Shown: piece by piece, positions 25,879-36,060 of the stretch
Position numbering within the stretch: the first letter of the stretch is position 1
Layout of the letters: each line of letters starts with the position of its first letter
NCBI GenBank assembly: GCA_963751455.1
Contig: CAVVUN010000009.1
Span: forward strand, 256,001 to 320,000
Source of the DNA: Nitrospirota bacterium
Lineage (GTDB): Bacteria > Nitrospirota > UBA9217
DNA: 64,000 nucleotides
Direction: 5' to 3'
Notes under the pieces: model-generated
What the model was told of the DNA's origin: nothing
Seen by the model: only the letters and a program-made list of their open reading frames with translations
Databases searched by the model: none
Position numbers and translations under genes: made by a program

Positions 25879-26440
25879 TTACGATTTAACCGCATAAGTT
25901 CCCTTGGGACTTAATGCACGCTTGTAATCTGAAATCGAGTGATATCCGTTCGCCGCAAGAATCAGGTCGTAACGCTGCCCATTTTGGGTGAAATCTTCTC
26001 TGGTGTAATCAATGACCTGGTCTGCGCCAATCGAGCGCACCATATCCAAATTCCTCGTACTGCACACGCCAGTCACTTTAGCTCCGAACGATTTGGCAAT
26101 CTGTACCGCAAACGTACCAACACCACCAGACGCACCATTAATCAAAACCTTTTGCCCTGGCTGAATCTGTCCTTTATCGCGAAGACCATGTAGGGCGGTG
26201 ACTGCCGCCACAGGTACGACCGCTGCTTCCTCGAACGATATATTGGCCGGTTTCAACGCCAATGCATTTTCACGGCACATACATACTCGGCAAAACCGCC
26301 CAAACCGCACTCGAATAAGTCCCCGAATACCTCATCACCCGGCTGAAACTGCCTTACGTTTCTGCCTACTACTTCCACCCGCCCCGCTATGTCAGATCCG
26401 AGTATCTTGTATTTTGGTTTTAGAAGCCCAGAGTGCAGGC
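25879..26440 (-). pseudogene. NAD(P)-dependent alcohol dehydrogenase/quinone reductase (MDR) fragment
   Basis: ILGSDIAG.V..VG, GGFAEY, VLINGASGGVGTFAVQIAK, ADQVIDY; both ends missing, frameshift. Confidence 0.8.
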
Positions 26441-26461
26441 GGGCCAAGAACGGGTCAGTTG

Positions 26462-26571
26462 GTAGGTTGGGTAGAACGAAGTGAAACCCAACGCTTTTTA
26501 GTTTTCAGATTACTCACCAATTGCCGAAACATTAAATCTGTCGGGTTTCGCAGCAGCTCTACCCGACCTAC
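26462..26571. repeat. inverted REP doublet
   Basis: GTAGGTTGGGTAGAACGAAGTGAAACCCAAC ... GTCGGGTTTCGCAGCAGCTCTACCCGACCTAC. Confidence 0.75.
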
Positions 26572-26682
26572 GAACTAATTTGTCAACATCAAAGATTCGA
26601 CCCCATGACCACGCATGACCACGTTAATCACCTTGTCCGATGTCAAGGGCAATCACTTTCTTGTTACGTTATTCTTACTACA

Positions 26683-29658
26683 TTAATTCTCAGGCTTCTT
26701 GACTGCTAAAAAATGAACGCCAGGTTCTGGCGGCACTAACCACGCGCCAATGGCCTCACCCTCTGTTGGTTGATAGCGATATGACTGGTGAGATTGAGCT
26801 GATGCCCCAATCTTCCAGCCATAACCCATCGATTCAAGCGTAAGCAACGGAGAAAACACGGCGTCATCTGTATCAACTAGACTGCGTCCGTTAAGATGGA
26901 ACGGGGCAATGCCTACTTGAGTGGCTTGTTCAGCCGCCGATAAGTTTCTCTTGCTTACCAGAGTGACATTTCGAGCGCGGAGTGATTTTAGCGCATCTGC
27001 TATTTCAAATTCCAATGTCTTAGGCGACTGTTGGAGACCATTTGCTTTTATGTGGGTTGTTTTACTTAACAGCAACCTTCTCATATGCAACAAATCGACC
27101 TGGGATTCGTTAACAAAGTCAAAGAGAATATTTAGTGGAATGTCACGCGAGTAAGGAAGCAACCCAATTTCGATATACGTTTGCTGTTCATTTTGAATTG
27201 CCGGAATGCAATTGGCCGCCTCGGTAAGTAATTGCTCCATAACTCCATGACCAGGACTTACACAGCCCACTCCTGAAGCAGGAACCAGAAGGAACTTTCC
27301 ACTCGCTAAAAAAGATTTCGCCTCAGTAATGAGAAATTTCATAACATCATTGGGCAACCATGAAGCATACCCCATCGCCATAAAGCGATGTCGTCCCGTT
27401 TTCGATTTCAATTCAGACCCGAGCGTTAATAGGTACCCAGCACCCCAAGGCCCAAACCAATTTCCATCGACCATGTGAAGAAACTTTCCAGATTTGGTTG
27501 GTCCTTTCCACAACAATAAGGTGAAATCTGCATATAAAGACCACAGTCTAAGCGCCTGCCTGATGTCCTCCAGTGATCGCACTTCGATTGTTACATTCAA
27601 TGAGTGTGGAAACGCTTGCAAGTTTCGGAGAATTTGTGCAAAGCAACCGCGGCCCCAATAGTCATAATCGAGCGCTGCCGCATTATAGTCATCTGCGGTA
27701 TCTTCCCACCATTTGACAACAGGGGCTACGGTCAATGCGTTTGCCTCATGTAAACTTAAAATGGGTTCTTCGCTAGGGTTTTCTATTTCTGAATCGCCAA
27801 GATAACGAGAAAAGCCTCTCGCTCGTTCAAGGGTCTCCTTAAAGACGTTTGGCCCTTGTCCTATGAGCGATATGTCAATTATTCGTTTGCGAAGTTCGAT
27901 GTTTGCTTCGACCCGCTTTATATAGTTTTCCTTGATTTTGCATAGCTTTTCATCTTCAGTCAAGCATTCGCCCAATTTAGTCATTGCGCTTTGAAGGCTA
28001 TCGTTCTGTCCGAGCTGTGAAGAATAATTAGCGATCAATCCTAATATTTCTAAATGAATATCCATTGGCACACTAATGCGCCCGGCAACCAAATGATATG
28101 CTTCTTGCGCCAATTCTAAAGCACGCTCAGTTTGCCCTTTGTCTGCAAGTGCCTCTGCCAAATTCATCTTAGCCATAAAGGAAGAATCGACCTCGGAGGC
28201 AAGATCTACGGCTATTTCAGCTTTTTCCACAGCTGTAGCTAAATCGCCTAACTGCCGCGAGATCACAGAAACCAACTGTGTAGTAGCGAACGTAATAGGC
28301 TCAGTCTCTGGTGACACAGCAATGTTCAAGAGTGATTTTGCTTTCTGTAGCGCCTCCTCAAGTCGTCCAGCTTGAAAGTTAACCAAAGCCACCGTGTAAA
28401 GTACGCCGGGTAGAAAGGCCTTACGTGTATCTGTTGAAACTTTGTCAGCTAAACGCAATGCCGCTTCAGACGCGGCTACTGCTGTACTATGACGTTTGGC
28501 GTGTGATGAATTATTTGCAACATTAATCAATTGCCCTGCAATACGCAGGGAGAGAAAGCTGTTACGCGCCGAAGCTTCCAACTCATGAATTCGAGATATA
28601 GCCGCATCTTCATCGCCTGACTTCACTGCCCAGTGAATCCCAGCGTTAAGGGCTGCTTGAAAAACCTCACCGTCAAGCATATCGGGATTGCGCTTTGCAT
28701 ATGTCTCAGCTAAGTTGAGATGCTCCTCGGCCTCACTAGAGCGGTTCGCATTGCACAGAAGATGTACGTACTCTGAACGGGCGACGCATAGTTGTTCGTC
28801 ACAACGCTCGATATTTGCAGGTAGGCTGGCCAATGCAATTGCTTCCAGATATGCAGATTCGGCCCCGTGAAAATCGCGCTTTTCCTCTAGATACGCACCA
28901 CGCGCTCGATGGTACATCACTAAAACGGGCACTTCCGTAATATCTTTATGCAAGGACTCAAGCCGTTGAAAGTAATATCCGCGATCACCTATGCCACCTC
29001 GGGCAGACGAAAGTAAGGATAGGCCAATTAGTACTTCAGCCTGTAAATGGACGAGCTTCTCAGTCTCAGCTATCACAAGTGCCTCTTCCATTGCCTCAAA
29101 TGCCTTACGTCTTTTGTCTTGATTGGCTAGTTCGGTCGCTCGCTTCAATAAAGAGCGTATTTTTGACTCAATTTGATTTGGCGATTTGGAAATTCCAAAT
29201 AGAGAAGATAGCTTCTCCGTCGTTAATTTTTCCAGTCGTTCCCATAGACCGTCAATTCCAAGGGCCTCGACACGAACGTCTGGGTTCACAGCGCTCAGCC
29301 GCGCTAATGTCTTTGCTGTAAGGTGCCCAACCTTGCCATCAGCGCTATTGTGAATAAACGTCCATACTTTGAGAGAACTACCAAGAGTGTCTTTTGCCTT
29401 ATTGAAGTCGGCTGCGACCTTGGAGGCCGTGCTACTATCAGTAGTGAGGCTAGGCGGGGCATAGAGTTGATAAACTCTTCCTTCTTTCAATGCCAACCCG
29501 TCGATGCCACCATCACCTCTTGTTACACGAATTGCCAAGAAGCAGTCTTCGCCGTGAAGAGCAATCGCAATTTTTTCAAACCAGTTTTGGAAGGCTTCCC
29601 CGTGAACACTGCGGAACTCTTCTCGATATTTAAGTTTAATGCCTTGTTCTAAGTCCAT
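26683..29658 (-). CDS. N-terminal restriction-endonuclease-like domain + TPR-like repeats + unknown C-terminal domain (991 aa; cassette gene)
   Basis: GEAFQ..F, GDGGIDG, VYQLYAP, K...DF.KA at the N-terminus; Ala/Leu-rich helical repeats aa ~165-600. Confidence 0.7.
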   Translation of the reverse strand: MDLEQGIKLKYREEFRSVHGEAFQNWFEKIAIALHGEDCFLAIRVTRGDGGIDGLALKEGRVYQLYAPPSLTTDSSTASKVAADFNKAKDTLGSSLKVWTFIHNSADGKVGHLTAKTLARLSAVNPDVRVEALGIDGLWERLEKLTTEKLSSLFGISKSPNQIESKIRSLLKRATELANQDKRRKAFEAMEEALVIAETEKLVHLQAEVLIGLSLLSSARGGIGDRGYYFQRLESLHKDITEVPVLVMYHRARGAYLEEKRDFHGAESAYLEAIALASLPANIERCDEQLCVARSEYVHLLCNANRSSEAEEHLNLAETYAKRNPDMLDGEVFQAALNAGIHWAVKSGDEDAAISRIHELEASARNSFLSLRIAGQLINVANNSSHAKRHSTAVAASEAALRLADKVSTDTRKAFLPGVLYTVALVNFQAGRLEEALQKAKSLLNIAVSPETEPITFATTQLVSVISRQLGDLATAVEKAEIAVDLASEVDSSFMAKMNLAEALADKGQTERALELAQEAYHLVAGRISVPMDIHLEILGLIANYSSQLGQNDSLQSAMTKLGECLTEDEKLCKIKENYIKRVEANIELRKRIIDISLIGQGPNVFKETLERARGFSRYLGDSEIENPSEEPILSLHEANALTVAPVVKWWEDTADDYNAAALDYDYWGRGCFAQILRNLQAFPHSLNVTIEVRSLEDIRQALRLWSLYADFTLLLWKGPTKSGKFLHMVDGNWFGPWGAGYLLTLGSELKSKTGRHRFMAMGYASWLPNDVMKFLITEAKSFLASGKFLLVPASGVGCVSPGHGVMEQLLTEAANCIPAIQNEQQTYIEIGLLPYSRDIPLNILFDFVNESQVDLLHMRRLLLSKTTHIKANGLQQSPKTLEFEIADALKSLRARNVTLVSKRNLSAAEQATQVGIAPFHLNGRSLVDTDDAVFSPLLTLESMGYGWKIGASAQSHQSYRYQPTEGEAIGAWLVPPEPGVHFLAVKKPEN

Positions 29659-29740: not shown

Positions 29741-29799
29741 GGGTAACATGCGGATGTGGGGCGTGATTCTCAACGACCCTTACGATCCGCTTGTTATGC
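29741..29799 (-). other. attC site (59 bp)
   Basis: Minus strand: GCATAAC AAGCGGATCGT...ACATCCGCAT GTTACCC; R'' contains the TAA stop of the upstream gene; extrahelical base in L''. Confidence 0.85.
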
Positions 29800-31581
29800 C
29801 TGCTCGATAAATAGCTCTGAACCTCTTTTTATAGATCGGTTGAACATAATACCGATCTCGCCGGAATGAGCCTCGTCAACGCTTTTATCGTCTATTTGTA
29901 TAGACTTCACAACAGCTACCGCGTAGCTTGAATTCTTTTTTACAATTATCTTCATGTTTCTTGTGATATGAATTCTATTGATGTTTTTTACGATCGCAAT
30001 TTTCCCATCCTGATAGTATTCTTCGGGAACGCCAATGGAAATAAGGTTTTCGGGTTTTAATTCAATTAATCCCACTTGAAACAATTTATTGCGGACATGT
30101 TCCTTAGTTATTATGCCGTCTTCAACCATGAAGTATGCTTTGTACAACTCAAAAGTTGTTAATAGGCCACGCTTATCCAAAAGCGCATCTCCTATCTGGA
30201 CGTCTGAAAAAGGAGGATTAAGCCTGCTGTGAGGAGGTATATAACGCTGATGATTAACTATATACAGCCCAAAAACATCAAACCGATTTCTCTGCTCGGC
30301 TCTTCGAAATCTAATTTTGGATATCTGTGAGCAATCCTTGTCTGTGGATGTGCCACTGATGCCCTTAACCTCGATAACAAGAAGTCCTTTTTCATTTTCT
30401 ACTTGCAAATCCTCTTCCTTAATTTCTAATTCCAACTCGTCCATGTTTACGACGGATTCAAAGCCTAACCAGTTAAGAAAATATTCGACTGCCTTTACAA
30501 GCTTATCGCCGGTTTCAAATATAAGTTCATGAAGAAAGTGATATTTAATTCTATTTTCACTTAGCAATCTATCCAAATCATGAATATCTTTTTGATATTT
30601 CTCTTCGAGATTTTTCTTAGCCTCAATAAGGGCATTTTCACCAGGGAGTAAATATTCTCCACTTTTTAGCCATCCGAATTGACCATGAAATGGAAACAAT
30701 TCTGGGTAAATTTCGGGAAGATAAACGTTGAGTAGGTCAGAAAGAAATTTTCCCTTATTCTTGATATCGGGAAAAACTAAAATCAATCCTTCGTCATAAA
30801 AGTGACTAAAACTAATTATTTCCCCATTATCATTGACTAACAATGGCAAGAAAGATTTCATTTTCACATTCTTTCCATCTTTCCATTCTGTCGGATGGGA
30901 AAAAACTATATTATAGGTTGAGCCATCCAGATATTTTTCAAGAAGTGGAGACAATTTAGTCTCACTCTCCGGAAGTTTTATTTTATTACCAGACTTATTT
31001 TTCGAGGATGGTAAGCCACTATAGAAATCAAGATTTGAATATTCTTTTTCGCTCGTAACATTAGCATAACGGTCATTAATTTCTACGAATTGATAAGAAA
31101 CGCTCTCTTCTTGAGGAGAGAAGCATATGACGACAGACTCTTTTTTTAGTATTTCTGCAATTTCTTTGGCGATGACATAAATAGACAGAGGCCTCGGATC
31201 GAAAATCGTTTGCGGATATTTGCAAAGTAGAGCATGTGCTTTTTTGTCCTTTGTTCGGTCTATGCTGTGATCATTATCTTTATACTCAATACTTTTCTCT
31301 CTAGTCATATCAAAAATGACTATGTCAAACTCGTGAAGATTTGCAGGAATTCGATAATTGAGCAATAAGAAATGTTCAGAATGGCGTTCGTTATTTGGAA
31401 CTTTTACGCAGGTTCCGGTACTTGCCACCTCATGCTTAAAAAGGTTTGAACTTAGAAGCTTCGAGACGTCATCATCAGTATCAAATAAACATATCAATGG
31501 CCTTTCATGAGGAGATGCGCTTTGAACCTGAGCATCTTTTATTGTTCCCAAAGTGTCTTTCTTTTTTTTCGTTTTAAACAT
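29794..31581 (-). CDS. PD-(D/E)xK nuclease with C-terminal EF-Tu domain II/U32-C-like beta-barrel (595 aa; cassette gene)
   Basis: TGDKLV.AV..FL..LGF, EEDLQV..LVIEVKG; C-terminal IG...YY...IAIV..VKSIQIDDKSVDEAHSGEIGI..IKRGSELF; very AT-rich. Confidence 0.7.
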   Translation of the reverse strand: MFKTKKKKDTLGTIKDAQVQSASPHERPLICLFDTDDDVSKLLSSNLFKHEVASTGTCVKVPNNERHSEHFLLLNYRIPANLHEFDIVIFDMTREKSIEYKDNDHSIDRTKDKKAHALLCKYPQTIFDPRPLSIYVIAKEIAEILKKESVVICFSPQEESVSYQFVEINDRYANVTSEKEYSNLDFYSGLPSSKNKSGNKIKLPESETKLSPLLEKYLDGSTYNIVFSHPTEWKDGKNVKMKSFLPLLVNDNGEIISFSHFYDEGLILVFPDIKNKGKFLSDLLNVYLPEIYPELFPFHGQFGWLKSGEYLLPGENALIEAKKNLEEKYQKDIHDLDRLLSENRIKYHFLHELIFETGDKLVKAVEYFLNWLGFESVVNMDELELEIKEEDLQVENEKGLLVIEVKGISGTSTDKDCSQISKIRFRRAEQRNRFDVFGLYIVNHQRYIPPHSRLNPPFSDVQIGDALLDKRGLLTTFELYKAYFMVEDGIITKEHVRNKLFQVGLIELKPENLISIGVPEEYYQDGKIAIVKNINRIHITRNMKIIVKKNSSYAVAVVKSIQIDDKSVDEAHSGEIGIMFNRSIKRGSELFIEQA

Positions 31582-31617: not shown

Positions 31618-33425
31618 GAGTCTGTAGAAAAAGTCATTTTGCGAGAGATCTTTTTATCGCATCTCGTCTTTGATCCAACCTGTGTGCTCAGATTATCGGT
31701 TCGTTTTGATGATCTGCTTCGTGAGTGCCCCGGTTTCTATTCGGGTTGCCTTTCATTTACTGCTTTTTTGCTGCTCTTAACCATGCTTCTCACGCAAACC
31801 CCGGCCCGTATCGATGCACCTTCAGAAGATTGTGCACAATGCAGTAGAGCCGCCACTGGATGCTCACCTTCTTTTTCCCTCTGAGACTGAATCGATCCAG
31901 GCCGAGACTGGAACGGATGTCGGCAAAGACGGGTTCGACCGTCGCCATCCTTCTTCCATAGATCAGCTTGCCCGCTACCGAATCTATCTTCTCCCGCATC
32001 TTCTGCGTGAAGGTCTTGGTCTTGTTGCTCGGTCTTCCCGGTAAAGTGCGCGAACTGGCGGGTTACGGTCACATCGGGATTCTTCATGCACTTTGCTCTG
32101 AATTGGCAGGGGATGCAGTCTCTCTTGGTTCCATGGTACTTGATGGCGTGTAGTCCATTATGGATTGCGTTGCCGCTTTTGTACATCCGTTTCCCGGCCG
32201 GGCAGATGCAGAAGCTCTTGTCAGGGCTTACCGTGAAGTCGCGAGGCTGGAAGATGATGGCTCGGTCGAATCTTTTCGCGACCTCTTTATTGAACCGCTC
32301 CTTGTGTCGGTCCGCATCGGCGAACCGGGGATCGCGGTGACGGAATTTATTGTCTGCGATGTATGCGTCGATGCCGTCCTCGATTACCATCTCCACGTTC
32401 TTTTCGGAGTGGAAGCCGCTGTCGCTGGTCAGTTTGGTCTTTTTGAAGATGTCTTCTTCTTTCCCGATCGCCTTGAAGTTCTCCCGCGTTCCTTCGACCA
32501 TGGGTTTCAGTATTGCGGATTCGGAGTCTCCGGTCGCCTCTGCATGGACCACGACCTGATGCTTGCTGTCGACCATCGCTACGCCGTTGTAGCCCTGGAC
32601 GACGCCGTGGGAGGTCTTCATGTTGGCGCTTTCATTGTCGGTGATGTTGCTCTTCCTCGGTTTGCCCTTGCTGCCGGGCTTGTCGTCGTTTTCCTCGAGC
32701 CAGGCTTTGATCTTTTTGACCTTCGCCTTGAGGGTGGAAATGTATTGCTCTTCCTTCTCTATGACCGCCTTGTCGGTCTCGGTTTTGTCTCGTTCCTTAT
32801 GCTTGCGCGATGATCTGCCGGATGGCCTTTTCCATCTTCTCTTTTTTATGCTGGAGATCTTTCTTGGTTCCGCTCCATTCCTTTGAAGCATTCGAGGGGA
32901 GCTTGCAGCCGTCTACCGCGAACATCTCTTTGCCGATCAGGCCCATCTCGTCGCAGATAAGAAGGACTTCGAGGAAGAGCTTGATCGTTTCCTGGTCATG
33001 CGAGGAGATGAAGTCGGCTATCGTCGTGAAGTGCGGCCGGGTGTCGGCGGAGAGGGCCATGAAGATGACGTTCTCGTTGCAGCAGTCGGCGATCTTCCGG
33101 CTTGAGGTGATTCCCTTCGAATAGGCGTACAGGACGATCTTTAAGAGAATCCGGGGATCGTAGGCCGGGGCGCCGGTCTCGTCGTTCTTGTAGCGAAGGT
33201 CAAATGCGGAAAGGTCGAGTTCGTTGTCGATGAGATAATGAAGCGTGTGTTCGAAGGTGCCGTGAAGGATCTGTTTATCGAAGTTGATCGGAATGAACTT
33301 GCCTTGGGAATAATCGTACTCCTTGTATTTCGCCATACGCCTCCCGTGGGTGAGGGGTATTTGATGATTCCTTACAGCGTTTTGATGGCGTCATTATAGC
33401 ATAAAATGACTTTTCCTACAGGTTC
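31618..33425 (-). mobile_element. IS1182-family insertion sequence, 23-bp imperfect terminal inverted repeats, 3-bp AAC/GTT target duplication
   Basis: GAGTCTGTAGAAAAAGTCATTTT (31618-40) vs GAACCTGTAGGAAAAGTCATTTT (rc of 33403-25); AAC at 31615-17 and 33426-28. Confidence 0.9.
31790..33336 (-). CDS. IS1182 DDE transposase in three frameshifted pieces
   Basis: GAPAYDPRILLK..Y, PHFTTIADF, AVDGCKLPSNAS, TDNES..MK, GYN, DSGF, VEPVFA. Confidence 0.9.
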
Positions 33426-33480
33426 AACACGCGCCTGACGCGCCGCCTTTGGCGCGTCGCTGTCGAGGCGCACGTTAATA
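33426..33480 (-). other. attC site interrupted at R' by IS1182
   Basis: Minus strand: TATTAAC GTGCGCCTCGAC...GTCAGGCGCGT GTT[IS]GTTATCG. Confidence 0.85.
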
Positions 33481-34408: not shown

Positions 34409-34503
34409 CATTAATGCGGCAGCTGAGCCATGACCCCGAAGGGGTTCTCCCGGCGTGGTTTTCGCGCCGGGTTAGGAGCGATGGCTCAGCTGCCGCATTC
34501 TCG
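34409..34503 (-). other. symmetrical attC-like element with perfect 19-bp arms (AAT...ATT core)
   Basis: AATGCGGCAGCTGAGCCAT (34413-31) / ATGGCTCAGCTGCCGCATT (34481-99) enclosing small hairpins. Confidence 0.6.
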
Positions 34504-34582: not shown

Positions 34583-34680
34583 TTGCAATGCAGCAGCTAA
34601 GCCTTACTTGATAGCGACCGACGGAGAGGTAGCGCAAAAAGCGAAGCTGTCAAGCGTCGGGCTCCAACTGATTGTTAGAG
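34583..34680 (-). other. attC site (98 bp)
   Basis: Minus strand: CTCTAAC AATCA GTTGGAGC ... GCTTAGC TGCTGC ATTGCAA; overlaps the 3' end of the HEPN gene. Confidence 0.75.
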
Positions 34681-35393
34681 AGAGCATTTTCATGTTTGGC
34701 TATTTCTTCTTTCAGCTCGTGAGCTCTAGCCGCAATATCTTTCCGTATACAATCTAAAACATACTTGTAACTATCCTCTCCAAACATTGATGTGGAGTAT
34801 GCGAGCGCTCCGAATAGCAAACTATATTTATTGATGATACTAATGGCTCGTTCCAAGAGAACTTCGATTTCAGCAAATTTCAACGGATCGAGCACGACAC
34901 TGTTCGGAGAAAGCGTTTCTTGCGGGTTTCTGTGCGCGCCTATATTATTCCTCCAGGCAAGGAGATGACGGACCCGGGGGTCTGCGCTAGACACAAAGGC
35001 AATGTCCGACTTCAGTTCATCCTTATCGGGTATTCGAGAGTCATTTGCCAAGCTTTCAACGAAAGGATTGTCTTTCAGCCTTTTAATAAATTCTGGAGTA
35101 TCGAATATGTGTAGGTTGGCTTGGATTGTTGCCAGAAGGCGCGGGAGGCTAAGAGATGATGTATGAGAATCGTAAGCACGACACAATCGCAACAAGGTTG
35201 CATCTACCTGGGCATCTATGGCCAGATTCCAGAAAGCGGCGGATTGATTTAGTTCGGTGACGTATTCGGGTATTGCGTTGTTAAGATTTTGATACAAATG
35301 GAAATGGACATGTGCATCAACGATGTCTCGGGCCAAGCCTTTCATCAGCGAGTCGAATTCTGCCGAGTTCTTTATTCGCATCGGCTTACTCAT
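34650..35393 (-). CDS. HEPN-domain protein (AbiU2-like; cassette gene)
   Basis: LLRLCRAYD....SL..L and Rx5H motif WRNNIGAH; predicted all-helical. Confidence 0.75.
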   Translation of the reverse strand: MSKPMRIKNSAEFDSLMKGLARDIVDAHVHFHLYQNLNNAIPEYVTELNQSAAFWNLAIDAQVDATLLRLCRAYDSHTSSLSLPRLLATIQANLHIFDTPEFIKRLKDNPFVESLANDSRIPDKDELKSDIAFVSSADPRVRHLLAWRNNIGAHRNPQETLSPNSVVLDPLKFAEIEVLLERAISIINKYSLLFGALAYSTSMFGEDSYKYVLDCIRKDIAARAHELKEEIAKHENALSNNQLEPDA

Positions 35394-35486: not shown

Positions 35487-36010
35487 TAAGCCGTTCGCGC
35501 GCCACGGTCTATGGAATTTCAAATGATTTCGCTTTTAAAGATTGGTCAATCTGAGCAGTGTATCCGGGGGCATGAGATGTTTTGCGAGGTCTGTTCCGGT
35601 GAAAAGCGGCACTTCCGGACAAATCCGCAAGCCCCTTTCATTGACGACTATACAGGAATCGAGGCTTTTGGGCAATAGGATATCGTTGCGAAACACAAGG
35701 CTGTTTTCGGGGATTGGGCACCGTGTCAGGTTATCGCGTTCGAGTGCGGTCGTCATATACGCGGAGGTCCTTTACAGCGCGCGGGCAGTATCGTCTCCGT
35801 TCTCATCGTTCGTTCCCCACAGTTCGGGCACTTGCCGACTTCGAACCCGGTAAGTCGAAGCAGTCGCTCCTGCCAGGTCTCGGTCTTCTCTTCCGGCTGC
35901 TTTCGCTCAGCCGTCTCAGCCCCAAGAAGCTCCCTTGCCCGCTCGATTTTCATCCTCCGGCATCGATTTCCCAAAAATCCGTAGTGCCTGATCTTGACGA
36001 ACCTGTGACT
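35487..36010 (-). mobile_element. IS91-family remnant (transposase C-terminus and downstream end)
   Basis: FVKIRHYGFLGNR...CPNCG..M...GPP; oriIS-like TTTGAAATTCCATAG near 35508-35525. Confidence 0.75.
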
Positions 36011-36060
36011 TAAAATCTCCATTGATCAGGAGTAAGAATACCAGAATCTAATAATTCCCC

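Follow-up and report, generated by a model that had tools for sequence, protein, structure and literature searches.

A 64,000-nt stretch of a Nitrospirota genome (contig CAVVUN010000009.1, positions 256,001 to 320,000; hereafter ‘the window’) carries a complete minus-strand gene for a 991-aa protein, the last in a co-oriented run of foreign genes comprising an AbiU2-HEPN gene, a lipoprotein-like gene, an insertion sequence and a gene for a 595-aa unknown protein (Table 1). Its reading frame is open throughout and begins with ATG, preceded by GGAG 6 nt 5′ of the start; the gene is AT-richer than its host (GC 46.4%, GC at third codon positions 0.42; genome GC 51.4%). An earlier note, made from the sequence alone, had proposed an NTPase-free defence nuclease built from an endonuclease-like N-terminus, tetratricopeptide repeat (TPR)-like helices and an unrecognised C-terminal domain (CTD), carried as one unusually large cassette. 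Translation returned the open frame and all motifs quoted there (G20-EAFQNWF, G48-DGGIDG, V62-YQLYAP, K80...DF85.KA, D666-YWGRG, R704-LWSLYAD, L790-LVPA, L834-PYSRDIPL). These are not chance resemblances, being strongly conserved in LmuA-type relatives (N-terminus) and in a 101-row CTD alignment.

An AlphaFold2 model of the full-length protein (37-row alignment; mean pLDDT 84, pTM 0.71) comprises a small alpha/beta domain (residues 1-155), a helical solenoid (~158-597), a short linker and a mixed domain (~631-991), with no alpha/beta domain between nuclease and TPR. The TPR-like helices proposed earlier are recovered both by Pfam TPR_2 and by structural matches of model residues 158-593 to TPR solenoids (top Z 18.8, root-mean-square deviation (rmsd) 11.2, 391 aligned; PlcR, Z 16.1, rmsd 3.4, 218 aligned). 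Structure searches with the full-length model were dominated by TPR rows, PDB sequence-profile searches gave TPR matches or noise only, and an Rfam search gave chance-level matches only. The absence of a Walker A/NTPase motif likewise held up: a Walker A regular expression did not match the 991-aa protein, and among 89 long relatives it matched two, both within TPR or TIR sequence; NB-ARC, NACHT and AAA had no Pfam match in the protein or in 88 CTD-profile relatives scanned. As judged from sequence, the family is one without an NTPase domain.

Table 1 Features of the 991-aa gene and of the array upstream of it (window coordinates).
Feature	Position	Strand	Basis or remark
Complete gene, 991-aa protein	26683-29658	(-)	Predicted effector nuclease, TPR, conserved C-terminal domain
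LmuA/ABC-3C-type PD-(D/E)xK-like nuclease domain (predicted), residues 1-155	29194-29658	(-)	Sequence and profile matches
TPR-like helical solenoid, residues ~158-597	27868-29187	(-)	Pfam TPR_2, TPR_MalT, TPR_12; model helices; structural matches
Conserved unclassified C-terminal domain, residues ~631-991	26686-27768	(-)	Model; 239 clusters; conserved residues
R″ box, possibly left over from a broken attC downstream	26663-26669	(-)	Heptamer read from the sequence, 13 nt past the stop
attC-like site	29741-29799	(-)	Single hairpin, -15 kcal/mol over 59 nt; AAC/GTT paired
595-aa cassette gene	29794-31581	(-)	GC 36%; no Pfam, PADLOC or NCBIfam match
Insertion sequence	31618-33425		DUF772 + DDE_Tnp_1_6; transposase in two frames
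Further attC-like hairpins upstream	33422-33480, 34595-34680		Separate genes of the array
AbiU2-type HEPN gene, first of the attC array	34650-35393	(-)	Pfam E 1.5e-27
Fragment with HYGFLGNR	35753-36022	(-)	Heads the array, at a place that an integrase might once have occupied

The N-terminal domain was assigned a nuclease fold by sequence and profile comparison. In BLASTP it matched the N-terminus of the host genome’s own 300-aa LmuA at 30% identity (E 4e-19); identity to the LmuA adjoining a relative at locus L010 was 31% (E 5e-15), and the PADLOC LmuA model matched 2 of 14 aligned N-terminal domains. These matches bear out the ABC three-component/Lamassu effector type that the earlier note had suggested. 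The own-genome LmuA carries Pfam ABC-3C CTD10 and precedes MC6 and DUF2326-ATPase genes. Its locus in the host genome (L060:3923-6776, on G000:C15) is a complete three-gene ABC-3C/Lamassu locus with the same nuclease family, followed by an AbiJ_NTD4 gene. The same nuclease domain also sits, at 72% identity, on an Avs-like NB-ARC-TPR fusion (P0035).

Aligned by hhalign to a cluster of Mrr-like N-termini—5 of whose 12 members match Pfam Mrr_cat—the domain scored 92% (E 6e-7), with D53 opposite the motif Asp and Q64-x-Y66 opposite the Q-C-K of that cluster. Since these positions align, the domain appears to be a PD-(D/E)xK-like variant without the usual lysine: the superfamily’s conserved acidic/Gln motif (Q24, D49, D53, Q64) is present on an alpha-beta core, modelled as H-H-E-E-H-E-H-E, and the catalytic lysine of the xK position is absent, Tyr66 aligning to the lysine of QCK. 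This QxY form is common to LmuA homologues. Q24, D49, D53, Q64, P68 and K80 are kept in 30-32 of 32 LmuA-type relatives, K80 in all of them. Q24, D49, D53 and Q64 are the predicted active-site residues, and the invariant K80 may substitute for the canonical lysine.

The CTD (~360 aa), when modelled alone, reached pLDDT 90.7 and pTM 0.90, forming an alpha/beta lobe with a beta-meander, a long helical hairpin (~842-904), a beta-hairpin and a conserved W973-L-x-P tail. It had no match in Pfam, PADLOC, NCBIfam or PHROGs. Foldseek with the whole CTD model returned no match at E ≤ 0.001 in the PDB and none among viral structures; VIA-align against 48,161 chains peaked at Z 6.9 (rmsd 4.6, 65 aligned), confined to the helical hairpin at 215-283, and a repeat search reached Z 5.0 at best, the helical hairpin filling the match lists. 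Made with the whole model, these searches do not establish a new fold. D666, W668, G671, W717-K-G and W973 are found in 96-100% of the filled rows of the 101-row alignment, and the near-invariant set comprises D666, W668-G-R-G, R704, W717-K-G, G739-x-G-Y, G787-R, G798-C, R860, W948 and W973. Identity in the CTD exceeded that in the TPR for 28 of 33 relatives (means 61% and 54%). The CTD is always terminal: in 89 long members, the median distance between its start and the C-terminus of the protein is 384 residues.

A full-length search collected 35 proteins including the query, and a CTD profile run against 1.84 billion representatives found 239 clusters (50% identity) at E ≤ 0.001; the family analyses rest on the best 150 of these 239 clusters together with the earlier matches. 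Long members, defined by at least 500 residues N-terminal to the CTD (n = 96), began with LmuA-type (33, a count inflated by the search seed), Mrr-like (10) or PNP (10) domains, or fell into many small groups. N-termini named by library profiles were PNP_UDP_1 (10), Mrr_cat (5), TIR (4, one of them in a protein too short for the set of 96), protein kinase (2), trypsin (2) and DUF4365 (2), and PADLOC named two of HNH effector type and one hydrolase. Judging by these matches, at least eight kinds of enzyme are found at the N-terminus among the relatives. On a quick maximum-likelihood tree of 90 CTDs (SH-aLRT support only; P0127 and P0188 excluded by a CTD length filter), the N-terminal class changes 39 times, the minimum being 10, and well-supported sister CTDs carry different N-termini (PNP/TIR, Mrr/trypsin, kinase/PNP). 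Because N-termini swap on the CTD tree and the same nuclease sits on the NB-ARC-TPR protein P0035, the nuclease is by these comparisons a mobile module, and TPR plus CTD form the constant core. A 2178-aa protein with 29 repeats (P0156) was rejected as a repeat artefact. A search for longer CTD fusions (1044-2980 aa) gave only P0010, yet missed known members of that length.

The family is rare, with seven loci among 185,579 species genomes in a pattern scan. The CTD profile found none in 300 other genomes in the phylum of G204. A long-profile phylum search matched 161 of 201 genomes; among the matches listed—204 further matches lie beyond these—only the host genome (G000) reached the CTD, the others matching the TPR. 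Neither a CTD nor a TPR-less relative was confirmed on viral contigs, and two single-protein queries found no relatives on plasmids. This rarity in the sampled genomes limits the ecological weight of the family.

Six full-length matches of 382-404 aa (P0170, P0182, P0183, P0184, P0189, P0191) consist of the CTD alone. They align to the TPR-fused CTD over 326 columns (99.9%), form one clade on the CTD tree and have no library match. Following the helical hairpin, 5 of the 6 have a hydrophobic 19-residue window (≥1.5), as against 0 of 139 other CTDs, which carry a beta-hairpin where the TPR-less members carry the hydrophobic one. The clade lacks C799 and K718 and carries no separate enzyme domain. 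We regard these proteins as a candidate membrane-acting family in their own right. The TPR-less profile, run over 401 genomes, found only the TPR-fused copy of genome G202. A cluster-mate of one TPR-less protein is labelled Phycisphaerae.

Comparison by hhalign with DUF6236 (PF19749; 9-sequence alignment) aligned a helical hairpin of ~68 residues, at 62% with the CTD and 86% with the TPR-less clade. Reversed controls gave 0.3% and 2.7%, and block shuffles at most 1.5% for the CTD set; with the TPR-less set, 1 of 20 block shuffles reached 53%. Global alignment gave 65% for the TPR-less clade and failed for the TPR-fused CTD (0.03%). DUF6236 and the TPR-less members have in common a hydrophobic segment after the hairpin, and the N-lobe does not align convincingly. 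No DUF6236 match above the Pfam cut-off occurred in the host genome or in the CTD proteins scanned, and a literature search on DUF6236 found no papers. Kinship between CTD and DUF6236 is thus possible, at the level of profile comparison.

The proposal of a large cassette fared less well. An attC-like hairpin of 59 bp does lie 83 bp upstream of the 991-aa gene, within an array, where it closes the 595-aa cassette; its R′ end would be the left boundary of the 991-aa gene. The filter that found it, an in-house heuristic rather than IntegronFinder, passed none of 60 random stretches of the window. Downstream of the 991-aa gene there is no intact attC hairpin: the R″-like heptamer there gave only a weak forced hairpin (-5.8 kcal/mol over 89 nt) and is, from its letters, a possible remnant of a broken attC. 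The same filter passed none of the relatives’ flanks (0/24 downstream, 0/17 upstream). Defence systems in integrons are reportedly smaller than those elsewhere, owing to the poor recombination of long cassettes (10.1101/2024.07.02.601686); a cassette of 3 kb would thus be unusual. The upstream hairpin thus keeps ‘cassette’ alive in part, and ‘large cassette’ is weakened by the missing intact downstream site and by relatives without attC flanks in the scan. No integron integrase scored above the TIGR02249 cut-off on this contig; as those above it are on other contigs (C1 and C2), the array in the window looks like an integrase-less attC cluster.

Within the array, the insertion sequence, which we take to be IS1182-type, abuts the GTT crossover end of the adjoining attC-like hairpin and has GTT on both sides; these flanks at the crossover end suggest attC targeting by the element. 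A strong inverted repeat at 34416-34496, attC-like with AAC changed to AAT and GTT to ATT, precedes the gene for a 293-aa lipoprotein-like product. The HYGFLGNR fragment presumably resembles the end of an IS91-type transposase. The 595-aa gene is a candidate defence gene; its product has an EEDL...EVKG stretch that we take to be like a PD-(D/E)xK nuclease, and a beta-rich C-terminus presumably resembling EF-Tu domain II. Past the 991-aa gene lie short repetitive extragenic palindrome-like repeats (26380-26620; 11 other matches in the genome) and, beyond them, a truncated zinc-alcohol-dehydrogenase-family fragment (25879-26310).

No partner gene is shared across 33 loci of relatives and the window, and a conserved partner was rejected on that count. 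Leaving generic ATPase, helicase and reverse-transcriptase matches out of the count, 6 of 19 loci (88 open reading frames) had a clear PADLOC defence match within 4 kb: PDC-S39; AbiEi; a Lamassu-like match with restriction–modification and DISARM fragments; a BovA-like CHAT gene; and type IIG restriction–modification twice. Hand-picked neighbours included NACHT-like, DUF4238, XamI restriction–modification, MutL-like and CHAT genes, and integrase genes flank four loci (L001, L003, L014, L018). A Lamassu locus adjoins the family gene only in L010 and its near-copy L017.

We propose, with moderate confidence, that the 991-aa protein is a stand-alone, NTPase-free sensor–effector whose N-terminal enzyme is exchangeable and whose CTD is the constant switch. 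Of the earlier claim of an NTPase-free defence nuclease, the nuclease type, the missing NTPase and the stand-alone organisation stand, and the effector repertoire and neighbours point to defence, so that a role in defence or conflict, as predicted from these sequence features, is very probable. In contrast to the earlier note, we place the switch in the CTD, as this is the most constant part and exists without the TPR; its claim to be the sensor or switch is no weaker than that of the TPR. Clustering tends to be required by TIR, PNP, protease and kinase effectors as well as by LmuA, and this shared need suggests that the constant body drives assembly on a cue. Activation by assembly is thereby favoured, by analogy, at slightly better than even chances.

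In outline, an infection cue would switch the protein on, and DNA cutting would then stop or kill the infected cell. The resting protein may be an inactive monomer whose TPR–CTD body would recognise a cue conserved among invaders, with a phage protein as the leading candidate; the CTD would then drive self-assembly in place of a STAND ATPase, and clustering would form a composite nuclease site, as for LmuA, whose nuclease is switched on by tetramerisation (PMC12663957). The phage protein is favoured by analogy with Dsr1, which is triggered by the phage major capsid protein (PMC13581612), although the odds that this is the actual cue fall somewhat short of even.

Several observations weigh against this proposal. 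In some 22 of the 90 tree rows the N-terminus is helical, membrane-like or helix-turn-helix (HTH)-like and could be assigned no toxic activity; fusions to kinase or HTH domains would also fit signalling. Neither the protein nor its CTD has a match in PADLOC, NCBIfam or PHROGs, 13 of the 19 loci have no clear PADLOC match within 4 kb, and the neighbour count has no background rate. With Tyr66 in place of the canonical lysine, the predicted nuclease activity is not guaranteed. Finally, TPR repeats generally drift faster than globular domains, so higher conservation alone does not make the CTD the switch.

A bolder extension of the proposal holds the CTD to be an undescribed ATP-free sensing and polymerisation module that does the STAND job: the TPR-less form would expose a membrane-damaging hydrophobic hairpin, which the TPR-fused form would have traded for an interchangeable enzyme. 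The family would then add a third class to the single-gene pattern-recognition receptors of bacteria, perhaps with a link to DUF6236. We consider this tentative and rather unlikely as a whole.

The CTD might instead sense a small molecule, either a nucleotide signal or a metabolite of infection; the protein would then be an orphan effector comparable to enzymes fused to SAVED or STING, and its TPR no more than a spacer or scaffold. Its wealth of near-invariant Trp, Gly, Arg and Lys (W668-G-R-G, W717-K-G, G739-x-G-Y, W948, W973) would suit such a receptor, as would the CTD alone with a hydrophobic hairpin (5/6 versus 0/139), reminiscent of sensor-2TM effectors, and HNH N-termini that match CBASS/SAVED-HNH effector models in PADLOC. 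However, the loci have no conserved cyclase or other gene for making a signal close by: just 2 of the 33 share a cyclase-looking neighbour, which lies on the opposite strand and lacks a Pfam match, and the idea leaves the 440-aa TPR unexplained, which makes it improbable. The two neighbours in question (L011:1979-2803 and L024:712-1470) are convergent downstream genes with what we take to be a nucleotide-cyclase-looking start, D(I/V)(L/V)GF.

Slightly less probable still is a reading in which the CTD acts as the main enzyme or toxin on the invader, with the N-terminal enzyme kept in reserve for suicide of the cell, a division of labour proposed for TPR-GreA/B-C-PIN, which has the same overall layout (PMC8195603). 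Conserved D666, R670, R704, D711, K718, E779, R788, C799 and R860 could form an active site, and the TPR-less members carry no separate enzyme; yet no enzyme family matched the CTD by sequence profile, and the TPR-less clade is without C799 and K718, having the hydrophobic hairpin instead. We give little credence to a non-immune signalling or guard protein whose TPR binds a host protein or peptide, like RRNPP regulators, and controls a DNA-binding, kinase or nuclease output: HTH-like and kinase N-termini do occur and the TPR matches PlcR, NprR, ComR and MalT-III among many others, but matches of this kind are generic to TPRs, the N-termini that can be assigned are mostly destructive enzymes, and the distribution is sporadic, on mobile or defence-rich, low-GC DNA. 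At two loci whose N-termini are HTH-like, an MvdD-type ATP-grasp gene lies upstream in divergent orientation (L016:6295-7704, L030:339-1385), an arrangement hinting that this subgroup may be regulatory or linked to peptides.

Several immune platforms of bacteria first came to light through the swapping of effectors on an unchanging core. In the present family, that core includes an unclassified, well-folded domain present in at least 239 sequence clusters and unnamed by PADLOC, Pfam and NCBIfam. The sensor–effector reading raises the question of how sensing is coupled to assembly-dependent enzymes within one protein, without an NTPase or a second-messenger cyclase; the natural chimeras and the TPR-less clade offer built-in controls.

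With respect to known systems, the Avs/STAND proteins have in common with this family the effector set, the exchangeable N-terminal effector, the TPR body and the single gene, but the family is not Avs because it has no NTPase; its TPR is central and followed by a conserved globular domain. Lamassu/ABC-3C LmuA has a homologous N-terminal nuclease and overlapping effectors (Mrr, HNH, protease, lipase). Nevertheless, the family is not Lamassu, as the 991-aa protein has no LmuA CTD (Pfam CTD10; no ABC-3C CTD Pfam match) and no LmuB ATPase or LmuC neighbour occurs in the window or is conserved across the 33 loci. Dsr1 and the other proteins that carry the Avs7 sensor without an NTPase are likewise single-gene effectors with a TPR-like sensor and no STAND domain; the family differs in having no PADLOC Dsr match and no sirtuin effector among the members scanned, and in the accessible part of that work we found no counterpart of the constant CTD or the TPR-less clade (PMC13581612). 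The literature searched, which left most subscription papers outside, held no description of the CTD.

The likeness is above all to TPR-GreA/B-C-PIN (PF20698), and also to Avs and Dsr1. That predicted system is a stand-alone gene without an NTPase, with a variable N-terminal effector—13 alternatives, including REase, HNH, PNPase, TIR and trypsin—and a constant TPR plus C-terminal module (Kaur et al. 2021, PMC8195603). The C-terminal module of the present family is instead a single domain of ~360 aa that matches neither GreA/B nor PIN profiles (none in Pfam at E ≤ 0.1 for the 991-aa protein), and PF20698 occurs in 0 of 5 genomes carrying the family, so that by sequence profile the family is not a member of that system. 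We conclude that the 991-aa protein belongs to a real, well-defined and apparently unnamed family, the logic of which has precedents and the core domain of which differs from theirs.

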